Of a DNA stretch of 64,000 nucleotides, positions 4,304 to 43,698 are shown one piece after another. The position numbers were made by a program, and so were the translations under genes. Position 1 is the first letter of the stretch, and every line of letters begins with the position of its first letter. Origin of the DNA: Verrucomicrobiia bacterium (GTDB lineage Bacteria > Verrucomicrobiota > Verrucomicrobiia > Limisphaerales > Palsa-1400); contig DASZMX010000133.1 of NCBI GenBank assembly GCA_035551475.1, positions 21,205-85,204 of the forward strand, written 5' to 3'. The notes beneath the pieces are model-generated. The model was given only the letters and a program-made list of their open reading frames with translations, was not told where the DNA came from and ran no database searches.

Positions 4304-5341
4304 ATGCCCGGCGCGCTCCCCATCGCGGACTTGGAGCATGTGCTGGCGCAAACCGCGCCGGAATGGGAGCAAATGCGCGGACGCCGCCTGTTTGTGTCGG
4401 GCGGAACGGGTTTTTTCGGGCGGTGGCTTTTGGAAAGTTTCCTTTTGGCCAACGAACGGCTGGACCTCGGCGCCGAGGCTCTCGTCTTGACGCGAGATGC
4501 GGCGGCATTTCTGCATAAAGCGCCGCATTTGGCGGACCGTTCCGCGCTTCGTTTTCACGAGGGAGATGTCCGCGACTTTTCGTTTCCACCGGGAAAATTC
4601 GACGCGATTATTCACGCGGCGACCGAGGCGAGCGCCAAATTAAATGACGAGAATCCGGGGCTCATGCTGGAAACCATCGTGGAAGGCATGAAAACCATGG
4701 TGAAATTCGCCCGGGCCTGCGGCGCCGGGACAATGCTCTTGACAAGTTCCGGAGCAGTCTATGGCGCGCAGCCGCCGGACCTTGAGCGGACGCCGGAGGA
4801 TTTCATGGGCGCGCCTGATGTGTCGGCGGCGAACGCGGCCTACGGCGAGGGAAAACGCGTCAGCGAACTGCTGGGGCAGATCGAGTCACGGCGAGGGTTG
4901 AAAGTGAAAATCGCGCGCTGCTACGCTTTCGTCGGGCCGGGGTTGCCGCTCGACGCGCATTTCGCGGTGGGCAATTTTATCCGGGACGCGCTGGCGGGGC
5001 GCCCAATTGTCATCCAGGGCGACGGCACGCCGGTGCGCTCTTATCTTTATGCGGCGGACCTGGCGGTCTGGTTGTGGAAGATTCTTTTTGCGGGCGCAAG
5101 CGGGCGACCGTATAACGTGGGGTCAGCCGCTCCGGTGTCGATTGCCGAAACCGCGGCGGCAGTGGCCCGCGCGCTGGGCAGTTCCAGCCGCATCATAGTA
5201 AACCAACAGCCGGTCCCGGGCCGAAAGCCAGCCCGCTACGTGCCGGAGACAACCAGGGCCGAGCGGGAGCTGGGCTTGCGGGCTTGGATCGGGCTGGATG
5301 AAGGCATCAGGCGCACGGCGCAATGGAATAAAAATTCATGA
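4304..5341 (+). CDS. NAD-dependent epimerase/dehydratase or sugar ketoreductase (SDR)
   Basis: 345 aa with Rossmann motif VSGGTGFFGRWL and YGEGK (YxxxK). Starts 3 nt after the previous stop. Confidence 0.75.
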   Translation: MPGALPIADLEHVLAQTAPEWEQMRGRRLFVSGGTGFFGRWLLESFLLANERLDLGAEALVLTRDAAAFLHKAPHLADRSALRFHEGDVRDFSFPPGKFDAIIHAATEASAKLNDENPGLMLETIVEGMKTMVKFARACGAGTMLLTSSGAVYGAQPPDLERTPEDFMGAPDVSAANAAYGEGKRVSELLGQIESRRGLKVKIARCYAFVGPGLPLDAHFAVGNFIRDALAGRPIVIQGDGTPVRSYLYAADLAVWLWKILFAGASGRPYNVGSAAPVSIAETAAAVARALGSSSRIIVNQQPVPGRKPARYVPETTRAERELGLRAWIGLDEGIRRTAQWNKNS

Positions 5342-7140
5342 CACGAGTCGCTGATTATATATTTGACTATTTGGTGAAATCCGGCGGCCAGCATGTTTTC
5401 GTGGTCACGGGCGGCGGCGCCATGTTCCTGAATGACGGTCTGGCGCGTTGCGGCGGCTTGCAATACGTCTGCTGCCACCATGAGCAGGCATGCGCGATGG
5501 CCGCAGAGGCTTATGCGCGCATTTCGGGAAAAATGGGCATCGTCAGCGTGACGACCGGGCCCGGGGGCATCAACGCGCTGAACGGCGTATTTGGCGCCTA
5601 CACCGATTCGATTCCCATGCTGGTCATTTCCGGGCAGGTCAAACGCGAAACCTGTCTGGCCGCGTATGATTTGCCCGCGTTGCGCCAGCTGGGCGACCAG
5701 GAGGTGGACATCATTCGCATGGCGCGCGGCATCACCAAATACGCGGTCCTCGTGCAGGACCCGCTCACGATCCGCTATCATTTGGAGCGCGCGGTTTACA
5801 TGGCCACTCATGGACGCCCCGGCCCTTGCTGGCTGGATATTCCAGTGGACGTGCAATCGGCCATGATCGAGCCGGAACGGCAGAAGGGCTACAATCCCAA
5901 GGACGACGAACCGCGCATCGACGGGTGGGCTCTCGCCAAGACCTGTCAAAATATTATCGCGCATGTGCAGCGGGCGGCGCGCCCCGTCATCATGGCGGGC
6001 ACGGGCGTGCGTTTGGCGGGCGCGGTTGATTTATTTGACACTGTTACCAAAAAGCTGGGCATCCCGGTGACGACCGCGTGGACGGCGGTGGATTTGGTGG
6101 CGACGGATAATCCTTTGTTCTGCGGGCGGCCGTGCAGCATTGGCGATCGGTCGGGCAATTTCACCGTGCAAAATTCCGACGTGCTGCTGGTGTTGGGCTC
6201 GCGGTTAAATATCCGGCAGGTGAGTTACAATTGGAAGGATTTCGCGCGGAATGCGTACGTCGTGCAGGTGGATATTGATCCGGCGGAAATGAAAAAGCCC
6301 ACGATCAAGCCGCATCTGGCGGTGGAATCCGATTTGAAGCCTTTTCTGGAGGAATTCAACCGGCAGATTGACGCCGCAGGGGTCAAAGCCAGCCATCACA
6401 GCGGCTGGCTGGCGTGGTGCCGGGAGCGCGTGGCGCGTTATCCGGTGGTGCAGGAGAAACATCGCACGGGCGCCATGATCAATCCTTATCATTTTCTGGA
6501 CGTGCTCATCCGCAAACTTAAGGCCACGGACACCGTGGCGTGTGGCGATGGGTCGGCTTGCGTGATTCCTTTTCAAGTGGCGTACATCAAAAAAGGGCTG
6601 CGTTTATTCTGCAATTCCGGCGACGCCTCGATGGGTTATGACATCCCGGCGGCGGTGGGCGCGGCGTTTGCCGACCGGTCGCGCCGGGTGATTTGTCTGG
6701 CGGGCGATGGCAGCGGCCACTTCAACATTCAGGAACTGCAAACGATCGTCCAGCATCAGCTTCCAATAAAAATATTCGTCCTCAACAACAACGGCTACCT
6801 TTCGATGCGCATGACGCAAGGCGGCTTTTTCAAGGGGAATTTTATTGGCGAAAGCCCGCGCAGCGGCATCTCCTTCCCCGATTACACCAAAGTGGCGCAA
6901 GCTTACGGCCTGCCCGCCAAGCGAATTGAAAAAGGTGATTTCGCCGCGCAGATTGACGAATTTTTGGAGGCAGAAGGCCCGGGCGTCTGCGAAGTTATTT
7001 TGGATCCCGAGCAAGGGTTCGAGCCGAGGTTAAGCTCGAAGCAATTGCCGGACGGGCGAATTGTGACGGCGCCTTATGAGGATATGGCCCCGTTTCTCAG
7101 CCGCGAGGAATTGGCGGAAAATATGTTTGCCGACAAATGA
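5338..7140 (+). CDS. thiamine diphosphate-dependent enzyme (acetolactate synthase large-subunit-like; YerE-like by context)
   Basis: 600 aa. PYR domain HEQACAMAAEAYARISGKMGIVSVTTGPGGINAL and ThDP-binding motif GDGSGHFNIQELQT...VLNNNGY. ATGA overlap with the upstream stop (5338-5341). Confidence 0.8.
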   Translation: MTRVADYIFDYLVKSGGQHVFVVTGGGAMFLNDGLARCGGLQYVCCHHEQACAMAAEAYARISGKMGIVSVTTGPGGINALNGVFGAYTDSIPMLVISGQVKRETCLAAYDLPALRQLGDQEVDIIRMARGITKYAVLVQDPLTIRYHLERAVYMATHGRPGPCWLDIPVDVQSAMIEPERQKGYNPKDDEPRIDGWALAKTCQNIIAHVQRAARPVIMAGTGVRLAGAVDLFDTVTKKLGIPVTTAWTAVDLVATDNPLFCGRPCSIGDRSGNFTVQNSDVLLVLGSRLNIRQVSYNWKDFARNAYVVQVDIDPAEMKKPTIKPHLAVESDLKPFLEEFNRQIDAAGVKASHHSGWLAWCRERVARYPVVQEKHRTGAMINPYHFLDVLIRKLKATDTVACGDGSACVIPFQVAYIKKGLRLFCNSGDASMGYDIPAAVGAAFADRSRRVICLAGDGSGHFNIQELQTIVQHQLPIKIFVLNNNGYLSMRMTQGGFFKGNFIGESPRSGISFPDYTKVAQAYGLPAKRIEKGDFAAQIDEFLEAEGPGVCEVILDPEQGFEPRLSSKQLPDGRIVTAPYEDMAPFLSREELAENMFADK

Positions 7141-26445: not shown

Positions 26446-26913
26446 ATGAATCTTGGCGATATTCTGAATCTCGATAACATCATGCCGGAGTTGAAGGCAA
26501 CCAACCGGTGGGAAGCAATTGATGAGACGATCCAAAACCTTGTCAATACCAACAAGATCAAGCCAGAGCATCGGGAGGCCATCATCGCGGTGGTGAAAAA
26601 ACGGGAATCCTCCATGAGCACGGGCATCGGCTTCGGCATCGGCATTCCCCACGCCTCCACCGATCTTATCGGGAACGTCGTGGGCGTCCTCGGGCGTTCG
26701 ACCAAGGGCATTGATTTTGACGCGCTGGACAATCAACCCGTGAACCTGGTGATGCTGTTCCTCGTGCCCCAAGGCCAGTTTCAAAAACACCTGCATACGC
26801 TGGCCAGCATTGCCAAGCTGCTTCACATCAAAGAATTTCGCCAGGAGCTTGAGCAGGCGCCGGACGCCCAGGCAATGTTCGACATCATCAAAAAGTATTC
26901 CACGCCGAAATAG
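26446..26913 (+). CDS. PTS EIIA (fructose/nitrogen-regulatory PtsN type) domain protein
   Basis: 155 aa. ILNLDNIMPELKATNRWEAIDE and the phosphorylatable-His context GIGFGIGIPHAS are typical of EIIA-Ntr. Confidence 0.7.
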   Translation: MNLGDILNLDNIMPELKATNRWEAIDETIQNLVNTNKIKPEHREAIIAVVKKRESSMSTGIGFGIGIPHASTDLIGNVVGVLGRSTKGIDFDALDNQPVNLVMLFLVPQGQFQKHLHTLASIAKLLHIKEFRQELEQAPDAQAMFDIIKKYSTPK

Positions 26914-26935
26914 GCGGGGCTGAAAAATTCCTGCC

Positions 26936-40096: not shown

Positions 40097-40513
40097 ATGA
40101 ACACAAGTGTATTTCCAGCCCGGCGATTGCTGGGAGCGGTGGGATTGATCGTGGCGGCGATCCTCTTACTGGCCTTGATTTACAATAATATTTTGACCGC
40201 CCGGGCCCCGCAAATGACGCCGGGCAACGCGGTGCATATTATCGAAGCTGCCCGGGCTTACACCCATGATTTGCGCGCCGCGCACCAGCCGATTCCGTTG
40301 ACGATCGATTTAACGAATCTGGTCGCGCTCAAATATCTTCAAGCAGCCGACGCCGCACCCTTCAACGGCCTGCAAGCCACGCTTTCCCTCGTCGCGACCA
40401 ACCCTGCCGCGTCTTCAGTGTTGATGCGCGTGCGCAACCCGGACGGCAGCGCCACGCTTCTTCTCACCGACGGCACCTCCCGCGAGACGCCCGCCGGCCA
40501 GCCGGCTCAGTAA
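40097..40513 (+). CDS. hypothetical small membrane-anchored protein
   Basis: 138 aa with an N-terminal TM ([19 protein letters not shown]). No recognised motif. Divergent from 38792..40048. Confidence 0.45.
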
Positions 40514-41532
40514 GCCGCCTGGACGCCTTTGACGGAACGCTTTTTCATCCACGGCATCAAACCGCGCAGGCGTTCGCCGACTTTTTCGATGGAATGCTTT
40601 TCGCCGGCCTTCAACAAGGCATTATACTTTTTGTAGCCGCCGTTGTATTCGTTGACCCAGCCCTTGGCGAATTTGCCGGATTGAATCTCTTTCAACGCCG
40701 CTTTCATCCGCTTCTTCACGCTCGCGTCGATGATCTTCGGGCCCACGCTCACGTCGCCCCACTTGGCGGTTTCGGAAATGGAGAAGCGCATGCCGCTGAT
40801 GCCCGCTTCGTTCATCAAATCAACGATGAGTTTCAACTCGTGCAAACATTCGAAATACGCCATCTCGGGCTGATACCCGGCCTCGATCAGCGTTTCGTAC
40901 CCGGCAATAATCAACGCCGAGGCGCCGCCGCAAAGCACGGTTTGCTCGCCGAATAGATCGGTTTCGGTCTCTTCCTTGAAGGTGGTTTGAATGACCCCGG
41001 CGCGCGTGCCGCCAATGCCCTTGGCCCAGGCGAGCGCAATTTGCTTGGATTTCTTGCTGGGATCCTGGAAAACCGCGATCAACGCCGGCACGCCTTTGCC
41101 CTCGACGAATTGGCGGCGGACAATGTGTCCGGGTCCTTTGGGGGCGACCAGGATGACGTTCACGTTCTTCGGCGGCACGATGGTTTTGAAATGAATCGAA
41201 AAACCATGCGAGAACAACAACGTCTTGCCGGCGGACAGGTTGGGCGCGATGTCCTTTTCGTAAGCCTTGGCCTGCTTAGTGTCGGGCAAAGCGACAAAAA
41301 TGACATCCGCGCGGCGCACTGCTTCGCCGGTGGAGAAGACTTCAAAGCCCTTGGACTCGGCGACGGGCTTGGATTTGCTGCCCTCGTACAAGCCGATGAT
41401 GACATTGCACCCGCTGTCTTTGAGATTAAGCGCGTGCGCGTGGCCTTGCGAACCGAAGCCGAGGACGGCAAGCGTCTTGTTCTGCAAATTCTTCAGGTCG
41501 GCGTCGTTATCCGAATAAACTTTAGCTGGCAT
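40507..41532 (-). CDS. ilvC: ketol-acid reductoisomerase
   Basis: 341 aa; [21 protein letters not shown] motif; class I KARI length. Confidence 0.9.
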
Positions 41533-41558
41533 ATATAATATGGAGTTGTGCCTGGGAT

Positions 41559-42032
41559 TTATTTTCGGGCCAGGGCGATCTTTCCCGTCCGGGTCAATTC
41601 TGTGACCCCGAAACCTTCCATCAAATGGAGGAATTTTTCGATCTTGCTTTCGTTCCCGGTGATTTCGATGGTCAGGCTCTTGGCTTGGACATCGACGATT
41701 TTGGCCCGGAAAATATCAGTGATCTGCATGATTTCAGCGCGCGCCCGGGCGTCCACGCCCACCCGCACCATCACCAGCTCGCGGTCAATGAAATCCGACT
41801 CGCGAAAATCGTGGACTTCCAGGACATTGACCAGCTTGTTCAACTGTTTGACAATCTGGTCCAGGGTGGCGTCATCGCCCACCGTGACGATGGTCATGCG
41901 CGAGACATTGGCGTCCTGCGTGGGCGCCACGTTCAGGGTGTCAATATTATAGCCGCGGCCGCTGAACAGCCCGGCAATGCGCGTCAACGCGCCAAACTTG
42001 TTTTCCACCAGCACCGATATGGTATGTCGCAT
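41559..42032 (-). CDS. ilvN: acetolactate synthase small (regulatory) subunit
   Basis: ACT domain [33 protein letters not shown]. Start taken at ATG 42032 (the track ORF starts at TTG 42041, inside the terminator U-tract). Confidence 0.85.
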
Positions 42033-42039
42033 ATAGAGC

Positions 42040-42069
42040 AAAAAACCCGCGTCCCAGAGGAACGGCGGG
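42040..42069 (-). terminator. intrinsic terminator / attenuator immediately upstream of ilvN
   Basis: Minus-strand sequence CCCGC-C-GTTCC tct GGGAC-GCGGG followed by TTTTTTG: a 10-bp GC-rich stem with one bulged C, a 3-nt loop and a U6 tract. It lies 7 nt before the ilvN ATG and 33 nt after the leader ORF stop. Confidence 0.65.
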
Positions 42070-42102
42070 CGACCTGTGAATCAGACAATGTCCCAGGCCG
42101 CG

Positions 42103-42156
42103 TCAGTCGAGGACGACGACGCGAACAACTGCGGCCAGGCTGATCCAGTAATTCAT
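42103..42156 (-). CDS. candidate Val-rich ilv leader peptide (17 aa)
   Basis: My translation is ATG AAT TAC TGG ATC AGC CTG GCC GCA GTT GTT CGC GTC GTC GTC CTC GAC TGA = MNYWISLAAVVRVVVLD*. Five Val codons fall within seven positions, followed by the terminator at 42040-42069. Too short for the ORF track. Confidence 0.5.
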   Translation of the reverse strand: MNYWISLAAVVRVVVLD

Positions 42157-42207
42157 TCGCGCTGAAACTAGCAACCGCACGACGCTAGGTCAACCATCAT
42201 TTTCGCG

Positions 42208-43698
42208 TCAGGCGCGCTTTCCGAAAAGCCGGTTAATCTTCGCTTTGACAGAGGAATCCATTTGGATGAGCGGCGGCCAGGCGCGCTTGAAACCTTCGCC
42301 GGGAAGTTTCTTGGTGGCGTCGATGCCCATTTTGCTGCCGACCGCGAACTCCGTTGTGGCGTGGTCCAGGACATCGGCGGGGCCCTTGGTGAAAATAGTG
42401 TCACGCGACGGCTCAGTGGTTGCGCCAATGCGGAAAAGCACCTGGCTGGTGTTGTGCACATCCACATCCTCGTCCACCACCACAATATATTTGGTGAACA
42501 TCATTTGGCCCATGCCCCACAGCCCGTGCATGATCTTGAACGCTTGCATGGGATACGTTTTTCGAATGCTGACAAAGACCAGATTGTGAAAGACGCCTTC
42601 CGCCGGAAGCGCCAAATCCACCAGCTCCGGGAAATTCATTTTGAAGATCGGCAGAAAAAGTTTAACGCTCGCGGCGCCAATATGGAAATCCTCCATCGGC
42701 GGAATGCCGACAATCGTGGCCGGATAAACTGCGTCCGCCCGGTGTGTAATGGCTGTCAAATGAAAGGTCGGATATAGATCGGCCAGGGAGTAATATCCGG
42801 TGTGATCGCCAAACGGGCCTTCCGTGCGCAACGGCTCCGTGGGATCGACATATCCCTCCAGGACGAAATCCGCGTCGGCGGGAACTTCCAGGTCGTTGGT
42901 CACGCACTTGACCAGCTCAACGGATTTCTTGCGCAGGTAACCAGCCAGCAAAAATTCGTCCAATCCGTCGGGCAGCGGCGCCGTGGCGCAGAAAGTGAAA
43001 ACGGGGTCGCCGCCGAGAAAGACGCTGACGGGCATGCGCTGCCCGGTTTCGTAATAGCGTTTGCCGTGGCGCGCGGCCACTTTGTGCAATTGCCAGTGCA
43101 TGCCGGTGGATTGCCCGTCGTAAACCTGCATGCGGTACATCCCGACGTTGCGCGCGCCCGTGTCCGGATCCTTGGTGACCACACAGGGCAGCGTGATGAA
43201 ACGACCGGCGTCGTCCGGCCAGCATTTAAGGATCGGCATCTCGGCAAGCGTCGGGCACGCCTCGGCCGCTCCCCTGCCCGGTTGATCGAGACGGATTACC
43301 TTTTCCTGACAGGCGCCGCGATTGACCATCTTGGGCCGGGCATGGCGCAACTCAAGGGCCGTGCCCAGCAACTTGATGGCTTCGCCAAAACTTTCCGGCG
43401 GCTTGGCTTTAATGATCGCGCCCAATTCCGCCGCGGCCGCCTCCACCGTATCAGCGCCCAAACTCATGGCCATGCGCCGCGATGATCCGAGGGCATTGAT
43501 CGCCAGGGGAAAAGGTGAGGGCCGTCCGTTAATGGTCGGATGTTCGATCAGCAACGCCTTGCCGCCGCCCGGCAGCTTCATCTCGCGGTCGGCCAGTTCA
43601 GTGATTTCCAACTCCGTCGCGAGCGGTTGCGCAATGCGCTTCAGATCGCCCGCTTTTTCCAGGGCTTGCACAAAATCGCGAAACGAATGAAACGCCAT
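42208..43698 (-). CDS. UbiD-family (prenyl-FMN-dependent) decarboxylase
   Basis: 496 aa. N-terminal FRDFVQALEKAGDLKRI, then GMYRMQVYDGQSTGMHWQLHK and FGDHTGYYS, typical of UbiD/menaquinone-pathway decarboxylases. Confidence 0.85.
   Translation of the reverse strand: MAFHSFRDFVQALEKAGDLKRIAQPLATELEITELADREMKLPGGGKALLIEHPTINGRPSPFPLAINALGSSRRMAMSLGADTVEAAAAELGAIIKAKPPESFGEAIKLLGTALELRHARPKMVNRGACQEKVIRLDQPGRGAAEACPTLAEMPILKCWPDDAGRFITLPCVVTKDPDTGARNVGMYRMQVYDGQSTGMHWQLHKVAARHGKRYYETGQRMPVSVFLGGDPVFTFCATAPLPDGLDEFLLAGYLRKKSVELVKCVTNDLEVPADADFVLEGYVDPTEPLRTEGPFGDHTGYYSLADLYPTFHLTAITHRADAVYPATIVGIPPMEDFHIGAASVKLFLPIFKMNFPELVDLALPAEGVFHNLVFVSIRKTYPMQAFKIMHGLWGMGQMMFTKYIVVVDEDVDVHNTSQVLFRIGATTEPSRDTIFTKGPADVLDHATTEFAVGSKMGIDATKKLPGEGFKRAWPPLIQMDSSVKAKINRLFGKRA

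Follow-up and report, generated by a model that had tools for sequence, protein, structure and literature searches.

Does a short, valine-rich leader gene decide whether a bacterium outside the Proteobacteria transcribes its branched-chain amino acid (BCAA) genes? We addressed this question in a stretch of 64,000 nucleotides (nt) from a Verrucomicrobiia bacterium (contig DASZMX010000133.1, positions 21,205 to 85,204; hereafter, the window), in which a 17-codon open reading frame (ORF) and a terminator-like hairpin precede ilvN and ilvC on the minus strand. IlvN is the valine-binding regulatory subunit of acetohydroxyacid synthase (AHAS), and ilvC encodes ketol-acid reductoisomerase (KARI). An earlier note on this DNA, made from the sequence alone, had proposed ribosome-mediated valine attenuation before ilvN–ilvC in a non-proteobacterial lineage, and we found that this proposal is supported by the reading frame, the ORF length and the run of valine codons in 19 other species. 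We conclude that the element is probably a valine-specific, ribosome-mediated transcription attenuator of ilvN–ilvC, made up of three hairpins in a row whose end nucleotides are shared. The positions that the note had given for the stop codon of the upstream UbiD-family gene, the promoter, the leader ATG and ORF, the terminator and the ilvN ATG were all correct when read on the minus strand.

The leader ORF (42103–42156, minus strand, as are all features below unless stated) consists of 17 codons and a TGA stop codon at 42105–42103, reads ATG AAT TAC TGG ATC AGC CTG GCC GCA GTT GTT CGC GTC GTC GTC CTC GAC TGA and encodes MNYWISLAAVVRVVVLD. Its ATG at 42156 lies 51 nt past the stop codon of the UbiD-family gene (TGA, 42210–42208). 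Codons 10–15 (42112–42129; GTT GTT CGC GTC GTC GTC, or V V R V V V) form a valine run that is real, although its density had been slightly misjudged: five of six consecutive codons specify valine, rather than five of seven. To place the ORF among its relatives we scanned for IlvN, taking one genome per species, which yielded 80 loci at 73–85% identity, nearly all of them labelled Verrucomicrobiota, Limisphaerales or subdivision 3, and we inspected the 260 nt upstream of ilvN in each. The attenuator module was present in 20 of the 81 sequences (the window and 19 other species-level genomes), and these 20 made up the module alignment. They are related to each other, and six of them, including the window, form a tight clade. 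The order of parts is constant: TTGACC-N14-TTGYTAGYYT, a gap of 6–10 nt, an ATG or GTG, an ORF of 15–20 codons, the motif CGCGRCC, a hairpin closed by GGYCGC, and finally CCCGC...GCGGG with a run of U residues. At the 3′ end of the ORF stands the valine run, usually followed by Asp and the stop codon, and CGCGRCC comes directly after the stop.

Valine is the amino acid in which these leaders are enriched. It accounts for 34% of leader residues (108 of 318, initiator excluded), against 6.1% in nine window genes, and there is no enrichment of Leu (12%) or Ile (3%). Codons −5, −4 and −3 from the stop specify valine in 18, 19 and 16 of the 20 sequences, respectively, and the central GTC of the run is near-invariant (18 of 20). 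The note had suggested aligning related loci to see whether the run persists, and the alignment showed that it does, with synonymous changes: position −5 is GTC in 8 sequences, GTA in 8 and GTG in 2, and position −3 is GTT in 6, GTC in 5 and GTA in 5. Enrichment also reaches codons −8 and −7 (valine in 13 and 11 of 20), where all four valine codons are used at each position. The N-terminal half of the leader varies freely in sequence and contains no stop codons, and only the valine run and the terminal Asp are conserved. ORF lengths are 45, 48, 51 (14 of 20), 54 or 60 nt, all multiples of three, and the +1 frame of the same stretch holds 48 stop codons across the 20 sequences. Taken together, this pattern of sequence conservation indicates that the leader ORF is translated and valine-specific. 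The choice of valine codons is itself skewed relative to the ilvN genes of the same loci (GTA, 27% versus 1.9%; GTG, 8% versus 56%), with the window leader using GTT twice and GTC three times; this skew could reflect sensitivity to a rare codon read by a minor tRNA, base pairing within the RNA hairpin that we call helix A, or both.

We also observed a conserved promoter-like region directly before the leader (42165–42203), comprising an A-rich tract (AAAATGATGG, 42203–42194), a −35 element TTGACC (42193–42188), a 17-nt spacer and an extended −10 element TGC-TAGTTT (42173–42165) with its hexamer at 42170–42165. The earlier assignment of TTGACC-N17-TAGTTT was thus rightly placed and its motif is conserved, with G3, A4 and C5 of the −35 element invariant in the 20-sequence alignment, but it is less sigma70-like than had been supposed: a promoter scan made no call here because TAGTTT agrees with TATAAT at only 3 of 6 positions, the scan using an E. 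coli consensus on a host from the Verrucomicrobiota. In 62 of the 80 sequences, leader-free loci among them, a strict pattern, TTGACN-N13-15-TTGNTANNNT, occurs in the 260 nt before ilvN. About 45 further loci keep the promoter-like motif and lack the leader, and there the −10 element lies mostly 23–27 nt from the ilvN ATG; its retention at this distance supports its being the ilvN promoter, an assignment that we infer from conservation. Leader-free loci (L003, L052, L058 and ~40 more) carry, over the final ~60 nt ahead of the ilvN ATG, a tiny conserved hairpin, CCGUUUC..(G)AAACGG, followed by UUUU right before the start codon; it might be what is left of a terminator, or else an independent element acting in translation.

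The spacing between promoter and leader is equally tight. In 19 of the 20 modules the leader start codon lies 6–10 nt past the best −10-like hexamer (7–8 nt in 14 of the 20, 8 nt in the window); in L027 the distance is 5 nt and the hexamer is a poor match. If the conserved motif is the promoter, a gap of 6–10 nt predicts a transcript whose 5′ end is at the start codon or no more than ~2 nt before it, which leaves no room for a Shine–Dalgarno sequence. The leader peptide is therefore probably translated from a leaderless message, or from one with a 5′ leader of ~2 nt or less, judging from this spacing. Four of the 20 leaders begin with GTG, a start that is tolerated in the leaderless systems of Corynebacterium glutamicum (PMC11857589), Deinococcus deserti (PMC4007540) and mycobacteria (bioRxiv 10.1101/834739).

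A covariance model built from the module sequences (R1) picked up copies that are weaker and in part decayed, in L012, L019, L050 (truncated where its contig stops), L077, L021 and L041. In L021 (2673–2780), for example, the stop codon is lost, giving the ORF MKHWINILTVVVVTAWLGLGH, and the 3′ arm of the terminator is gone. Because intact, decayed and absent versions coexist among close relatives, this distribution supports the view that the attenuator is a cassette that has been gained or lost between promoter and ilvN. The genes farther upstream vary from locus to locus: no UbiD gene occurs within 3 kb of ilvN in any of the 80 loci, and in at least L007, L008 and L029 the sole long upstream ORF is on the opposite strand. 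As the module is shared before ilvN despite these differences, the terminator belongs to ilvN–ilvC and not to the UbiD-family gene, which settles a doubt that the note had raised about its own proposal.

The minimum-free-energy fold of the window leader (RNAfold) consists of three consecutive hairpins, A, B and T. Helix A (42100–42122), the predicted 1:2 anti-antiterminator and possible pause hairpin, pairs GCGUCGUCG (42122–42114) with CGAC (42109–42106) and GACGC (42104–42100) across the stop codon; folded alone it has an energy of −14.4 kcal/mol (z = −3.2), and 83% of its cells are paired across the 20 sequences. Helix B (42069–42101), the candidate 2:3 antiterminator, pairs GCGGCCUG (42101–42094) with CAGGUCGC (42076–42069) around a variable inner stem-loop and follows the consensus GCGRCCNG:CNGGYCGC. 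The complete helix folds at −14.7 kcal/mol, and at −8.9 kcal/mol once the two outer pairs are removed, and 73% of its cells are paired overall, rising to 95–100% for the outer six pairs; its fourth pair is G-U in 11 sequences, A-U in 6 and G-C in 3, and never A-C. Terminator T (42040–42070) reads (G)CCCGC-C-GUUCC, loop ucu, GGGAC-GCGGG(U), followed by U6 (42045–42040); as DNA it is CCCGCCGTTCCTCTGGGACGCGGGTTTTTT (42069–42040), beginning 33 nt past the leader stop, and its U-tract ends 7 nt before the ilvN ATG (42032). T was listed by a scan for terminator-like sequences, is present in 20 of 20 sequences with an invariant stem core (CCCG/CGGG), has 92% of its cells paired, and folds at −15.9 kcal/mol when complete and at −10.6 kcal/mol if the two basal pairs are left out.

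These helices compete at their ends. Helices A and B both require GCG, and B and T, which meet at a junction reading GGUCGC followed directly by CCGC, compete only for the boundary dinucleotide GC (42069–42070), which pairs either with G42101 and C42100 in helix B or with G42046 and U42045 at the terminator's base. The combined A, B and T structure is paired in 82% of cells across the 20 sequences, compared with 32–42% when the partners are shifted by 1–3 columns, and the RNAalifold consensus takes the form of a full B with a short T, in which one boundary pair is G-C in all 20 sequences and the other is C-G in 19 of them. The conserved helix A differs from the 1:2 hairpin that had first been proposed. 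The complementarity of CCTGGCCGC to GCGGCCTGG at 8 of 9 positions is real in the window, but across the 20 sequences these segments pair in 51% of cells, which is no better than the 36–49% of shifted controls; the pause hairpin between codons 7–9 and GCGGCCUGG is not conserved, and its place is taken by the pairing of the valine codons GCGUCGUCG with CGAC-U-GACGC. We also rejected a long classical 2:3 antiterminator in which the post-stop GACGCGG, identical to the 3′ arm of the window terminator, would pair with CCGC(C)GUU. RNAfold never predicts it under any ribosome mask, and in relatives the 3′ arm of the terminator (GACGCGG, GAGGCGG, GAUGCGG, CAGGCGG) varies along with the 5′ arm, whereas the segment after the stop remains ACGCGR.

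The note had found no convincing 2:3 antiterminator by eye and had suggested RNA folding in search of mutually exclusive structures. We folded the leaders under a hard mask for the ribosome footprint, and repeated the calculation through base-pair probabilities without the U-tract, which was omitted because, when termination occurs, it lies within the RNA:DNA hybrid. This predicted a toggle between full B and the base of T, so that a candidate antiterminator does exist and depends on ribosome position, but its overlap with the terminator amounts to only 2 nt. With a ribosome stalled in the valine run, B gains two pairs and T loses its two basal pairs in the masked folds. The basal C-G pair of T has a probability of ~0.95 when the leader is free of ribosomes or when one stands at the stop codon, compared with ~0.1 when the A site is at the first codon of the last valine run, and the boundary pair of B rises from 0 to ~0.9 upon the same stall. 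A ribosome at the stop codon fully covers the 5′ arm of B. The switch was predicted in all 14 typical sequences of the 15 evaluated. The terminator base is lost over a window of about five A-site codons that overlaps the valine run in most of the 20 sequences: the codons at which a stall frees B are valine in 55% of cases, versus 17% of other codons (Fisher p = 2e-12). This placement was similar for footprints of 6, 9 and 11 nt past the A-site codon.

A switch of this kind has a well-studied counterpart in the ilvBNC attenuator of C. glutamicum, in which transcription starts 1 nt before the ATG of the leader MTIIRLVVVTARRLP (PMC11857589). There, replacing the three Val residues abolishes valine control, and changing the ATG to AGG cuts expression by 80% (PMC11857589). 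Mutational analysis of that system supports three hairpins, with an antiterminator that adjoins the terminator and contends with it for nothing more than a GCC at their boundary; when single bases at the foot of the terminator were exchanged (G110A and others), ilvB and ilvN transcription rose several-fold, AHAS activity 6.5-fold and valine output about tenfold (PMC11857589). Because the architecture described here matches this one, helix B, acting through the boundary GC, is most likely the antiterminator, and by analogy we would expect the loss of two basal terminator pairs to yield useful read-through. We speculate that a stable B, joined without a linker to the 5′ arm of the terminator, hinders completion of the stem in the RNA exit channel.

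On this basis we propose the following mechanism. Transcription would start at the leader ATG or within ~2 nt of it, and the ribosome would load without a Shine–Dalgarno sequence. If the leader is not translated, or once the ribosome has left, helix A would pair the valine codons with GAC-UGA-CGC and hold the GCG, so that B would remain short, T would be complete and transcription would stop 7 nt before ilvN. When Val-tRNA is ample, the ribosome would reach the UGA and its footprint would cover GCGGCCUG, again leaving T full and leading to termination. When Val-tRNA is scarce, a ribosome stalled on V-V-R-V-V-V would melt A and leave GCGGCCUG open; full B would then form first and take the GC at 42070/42069, T would be denied the two basal pairs that adjoin the U-tract, termination would be weakened, and polymerase would read through into ilvN–ilvC. 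In the terms of classical attenuation, A would be the 1:2 anti-antiterminator, B the 2:3 antiterminator and T the 3:4 terminator, with the 2:3 and 3:4 helices sharing 2 nt. The conservation of the valine-rich ORF and of the three helices, and the predicted position-dependent boundary switch, were established in silico on uncultured genomes, and a response to valine in vivo is what the model would lead us to expect.

Several observations weigh against this interpretation. B and T overlap by only 2 nt. A 9-bp T (−10.6 kcal/mol) followed by G-U6 persists in every constrained fold. In the full RNA, the two states are near-isoenergetic (B short with T full, about −24.8 kcal/mol; B full with T short, about −25.3 kcal/mol), so that strong antitermination is not predicted from thermodynamics alone. 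For L027 the model gives no switch. No base pair in the 20-sequence alignment shows a two-sided compensatory change, which the note had also suggested looking for; covariation is weak because the helix cores are nearly invariant, and the structural support therefore consists of conservation and energy. The valine codons double as the 5′ arm of helix A, and part of their conservation may be owed to selection on the RNA. Measured against the E. coli consensus, the −10 element is weak. Finally, among the copies found by R1, L019 (2171–2289) has a terminator right after the promoter and no leader ORF, and L012 (2879–2991) and L077 carry leaders that are not valine-rich, the L012 leader MSEWFHILRWSA being followed by an intact terminator.

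The first two of these observations favour an alternative in which the element is a leader-peptide attenuator whose terminator is overridden by something other than B and the boundary GC: translational masking of the ilvN start, the action of Rho or an RNase on the untranslated leader, or an antiterminator whose non-canonical or tertiary contacts escape folding programs. Consistent with such masking, the U-tract ends 4–7 nt from the ilvN ATG in six sequences (the window, L002 and L005–L008), and no Shine–Dalgarno sequence is visible before ilvN in the window or in the five clade members with this spacing. In the other 14 sequences, however, T lies 13–96 nt from ilvN, and masking of the start codon therefore cannot be what the element does in general. 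Helix B, moreover, can form its boundary pairs in 19–20 of the 20 sequences, the valine run sits exactly where a stall frees B, and the C. glutamicum switch, with the same minimal overlap, has experimental support (PMC11857589). We consider this alternative unlikely, and retain attenuation through helix B and the boundary GC as the preferred reading.

A second alternative holds that the element is a structured RNA that regulates in cis without being translated, for example a riboswitch or a leader bound by a protein, in which the GUC repeats are kept for the sake of helix A and the ORF is incidental. The dual role of the valine codons, the near-invariance of the central GTC and the many invariant positions of the alignment fit this idea. 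By contrast, the start codon, ATG or GTG, stands at a near-fixed distance from the −10 element, the length variants stay in frame, the valine codons flanking the central one vary synonymously and valine enrichment extends to codons −8 and −7, which lie outside helix A; the 5′ half of the ORF varies and yet remains free of stops that abound in the +1 frame. Fixed placement of start and stop codons, in-frame lengths and synonymous valine changes argue against both an untranslated structured RNA and a chance ORF. Additionally, the Rfam 15 covariance models gave no match at E ≤ 10 in 41000–43500. We regard this second alternative as improbable.

It is less probable still that the 17-residue peptide acts in trans, for instance as a small membrane peptide, and is not only a sensor. 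The peptides are hydrophobic, and a leader peptide that acts in trans has been described in the case of rhizobial peTrpL (PMC7298713). Conservation restricted to the valine run and the terminal Asp, with a free N-terminal half, and the constant fusion of the module to a terminator before ilvN speak against such a role, which in any case would add to attenuation rather than replace it. The remaining possibility, that the hairpin and U-tract simply terminate the UbiD-family gene, 139 nt past its stop codon on the same strand, and that the mini-ORF arose by chance, deserves hardly any credence, given the conserved promoter-like motif between that stop codon and the ORF, the occurrence of the module before ilvN in 19 species without UbiD, and the opposite orientation of the upstream gene in several of them.

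The enterobacterial operons ilvBN (leader ivbL), ilvGMEDA (leader ilvL), trp and his are controlled by leader-peptide attenuators, and the likeness to the ilv leaders that had first been drawn for the window element holds for the logic: codons for the end product stand in an upstream ORF (uORF), ribosome position selects the fold, and an intrinsic terminator precedes the first gene. In the classical scheme (Yanofsky 1981, as cited in PMC4007540), the enterobacterial ilv leaders differ in that segment 3 is shared at length, whereas only 2 nt are shared here; in that they have a Shine–Dalgarno sequence and a 5′ untranslated region, whereas the element described here is apparently leaderless; and in that they are multivalent (Val and Leu, or Ile, Val and Leu), whereas it is specific for valine. 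The closest system in logic is instead the near-leaderless ilvBNC attenuator of Corynebacterium (IlvL, ilvB-II; PMC11857589, PMC10272879; Morbach et al. 2000 as cited there). Both have a short leader ORF with consecutive valine codons (15–17 codons, with lengths of 45, 48 or 51 nt, always multiples of three), a transcription start at or near 1 nt from the leader start codon (mapped there, predicted here), three hairpins (anti-antiterminator, antiterminator and terminator), the last two of which adjoin and contend only for a GC(C) at the terminator base, and control over AHAS and KARI. They differ in phylum (Actinomycetota versus Verrucomicrobiota), in the first gene (ilvB there, ilvN–ilvC here), in the leader residues (Ile, Leu and Val versus Val only) and in the distance from the terminator to the first gene (~150–180 nt versus 4–96 nt). 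No Rfam 15 family matched the element at E ≤ 10, and no sequence relationship was detected at that level; the likeness to ilvB-II itself was judged from published descriptions.

Two further groups of candidates are related in part. The ilvB-OMG motif, found in various phyla, and the Leptospira ilvB motif are candidate attenuators, predicted by comparative genomics, with BCAA-rich uORFs and a terminator before AHAS genes, outside the Proteobacteria and Actinobacteria (PMC10272879). They resemble the element described here in combining a uORF and a terminator upstream of AHAS genes, and every Leptospira representative carries three or more valine codons in a row; they differ in being associated with ilvB, rather than ilvN, and in being rich in Thr and the other BCAAs. 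The two motifs were set apart from the element on the basis of published descriptions; the element itself matches no Rfam family at E ≤ 10. Leaderless leader peptides have also been reported, with 14 predicted in D. deserti (PMC4007540) and polycysteine leaderless small ORFs (sORFs) acting as attenuators in mycobacteria (bioRxiv 10.1101/834739). As is predicted for the valine leader, these sORFs begin right where the transcript does or 1 nt from its 5′ end, with AUG or GUG as a 5′-terminal start, but they involve different amino acids, target genes and phyla, and their starts were mapped, whereas those described here are predicted from the 6–10 nt spacing.

The element appears to work like these systems, above all like the corynebacterial one, and differs from them in five respects: it matches no Rfam family, comes from a phylum for which we found no report of attenuation, is specific for valine, precedes ilvN–ilvC with ilvB encoded elsewhere, and is polymorphic for presence, absence and decay among close relatives. 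Leader-peptide attenuation is a textbook mechanism, but to our knowledge the experimental evidence for it comes almost entirely from Proteobacteria, Actinobacteria and a few Firmicutes. Our literature searches found no reports of attenuation in Verrucomicrobiota and nothing relevant on attenuators or leaderless mRNAs in Verrucomicrobia. We therefore suggest, tentatively and with somewhat less than even confidence, that this may be the first leader-peptide attenuator family for Verrucomicrobiota and the Planctomycetes–Verrucomicrobia–Chlamydiae (PVC) group, an apparently independent invention of the Corynebacterium type that is specific for valine, acts on the valine-binding AHAS subunit and KARI instead of the catalytic subunit, and is gained and lost as a cassette. 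If so, attenuation would extend to the PVC group, and minimal-overlap switching would be a recurrent design rather than a corynebacterial oddity; the element would be a second, unrelated near-leaderless attenuator with competition for two or three boundary nucleotides, which would support the idea that removal of basal pairs suffices for control. It also suggests that the cell tunes AHAS through its valine-sensing small subunit together with KARI, with the catalytic subunit encoded elsewhere.

The covariance model can be used to annotate the element in metagenome-assembled genomes (MAGs) of Verrucomicrobiota, in which the 17-codon ORF should not be recorded as a hypothetical protein. A pattern of structure only, ACGCGRCCN{14,44}GGYCGCCCG, was intended as a test independent of the ORF but proved too unspecific: its 80 matches in metagenomes were all due to chance, in GC-rich coding DNA, and none had a terminator or leader. 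Among the 80 related loci, IlvN sequences 75–85% identical to those of the Verrucomicrobiota loci were found on contigs titled Baltobacteraceae, Bryobacteraceae, Bifidobacteriaceae, Akkermansia muciniphila, Methylomirabilota and others (L002, L019, L031, L033, L044, L047, L053, L055, L064, L066, L075 and L077), and several of these contigs share the promoter or leader as well; mis-binning or mislabelling of MAG contigs is the probable cause.

The identities of both regulated genes were confirmed. The first, ilvN (41559–42032), encodes the small, regulatory subunit of acetolactate synthase, with the Pfam domains ACT_AHAS_ss and ALS_ss_C and a score of 219.8 bits against a cut-off of 119 for the NCBIfam equivalog NF008864. 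In read-through transcripts of the clade that includes the window, a re-formed T hairpin would sit in the footprint of the initiating ribosome, and translational control could add to transcriptional control. The second gene, ilvC (40507–41532), begins 26 nt past ilvN and was identified as KARI by Pfam and NCBIfam (525 bits against a cut-off of 336). A KARI gene follows ilvN in at least 66 of the 80 related loci. In 14 loci (including L007, L008, L013, L020, L021 and L027), the KARI downstream of ilvN is only 33–40% identical to IlvC of the window, compared with 75–93% elsewhere, which suggests a different KARI class at the same gene position, including in three leader-bearing loci. The gene for the AHAS catalytic subunit is unlinked from ilvN–ilvC in the window and in the 80 related loci, in none of which a gene for a thiamine pyrophosphate (TPP)-dependent enzyme occurs within 3 kb of ilvN. 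The sole TPP-dependent enzyme in the window, at 5338–7140 on the plus strand, scored 319 bits against a 538-bit cut-off for the AHAS large subunit and fell under every AHAS cut-off; it is therefore not ilvB. The upstream UbiD-family protein is a menaquinone decarboxylase of the futalosine type (TIGR03701, 581 bits against a cut-off of 496).

Elsewhere in the window, we found no second copy of the attenuator, for example before another BCAA gene; R1 detects a single copy only. Rfam models at their gathering scores gave no matches across the 64 kb, so that tRNAs, riboswitches and all other known RNAs are missing, a slightly unusual result for DNA of this length. Between dxr and argS lies a gap of 545 nt, which was considered as another possible leader and rejected, as it encodes an unlisted protein of ~155 residues (MNLGDILNLDNIMPELKATNRWEAIDE..., 26447–26914, plus strand), which may resemble a phosphotransferase system EIIA/PtsN-type regulator. 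The neighbouring dxr ORF as listed (562 amino acids from a GTG) probably extends too far in the 5′ direction, given that the first of its Pfam domains begins at residue 188.

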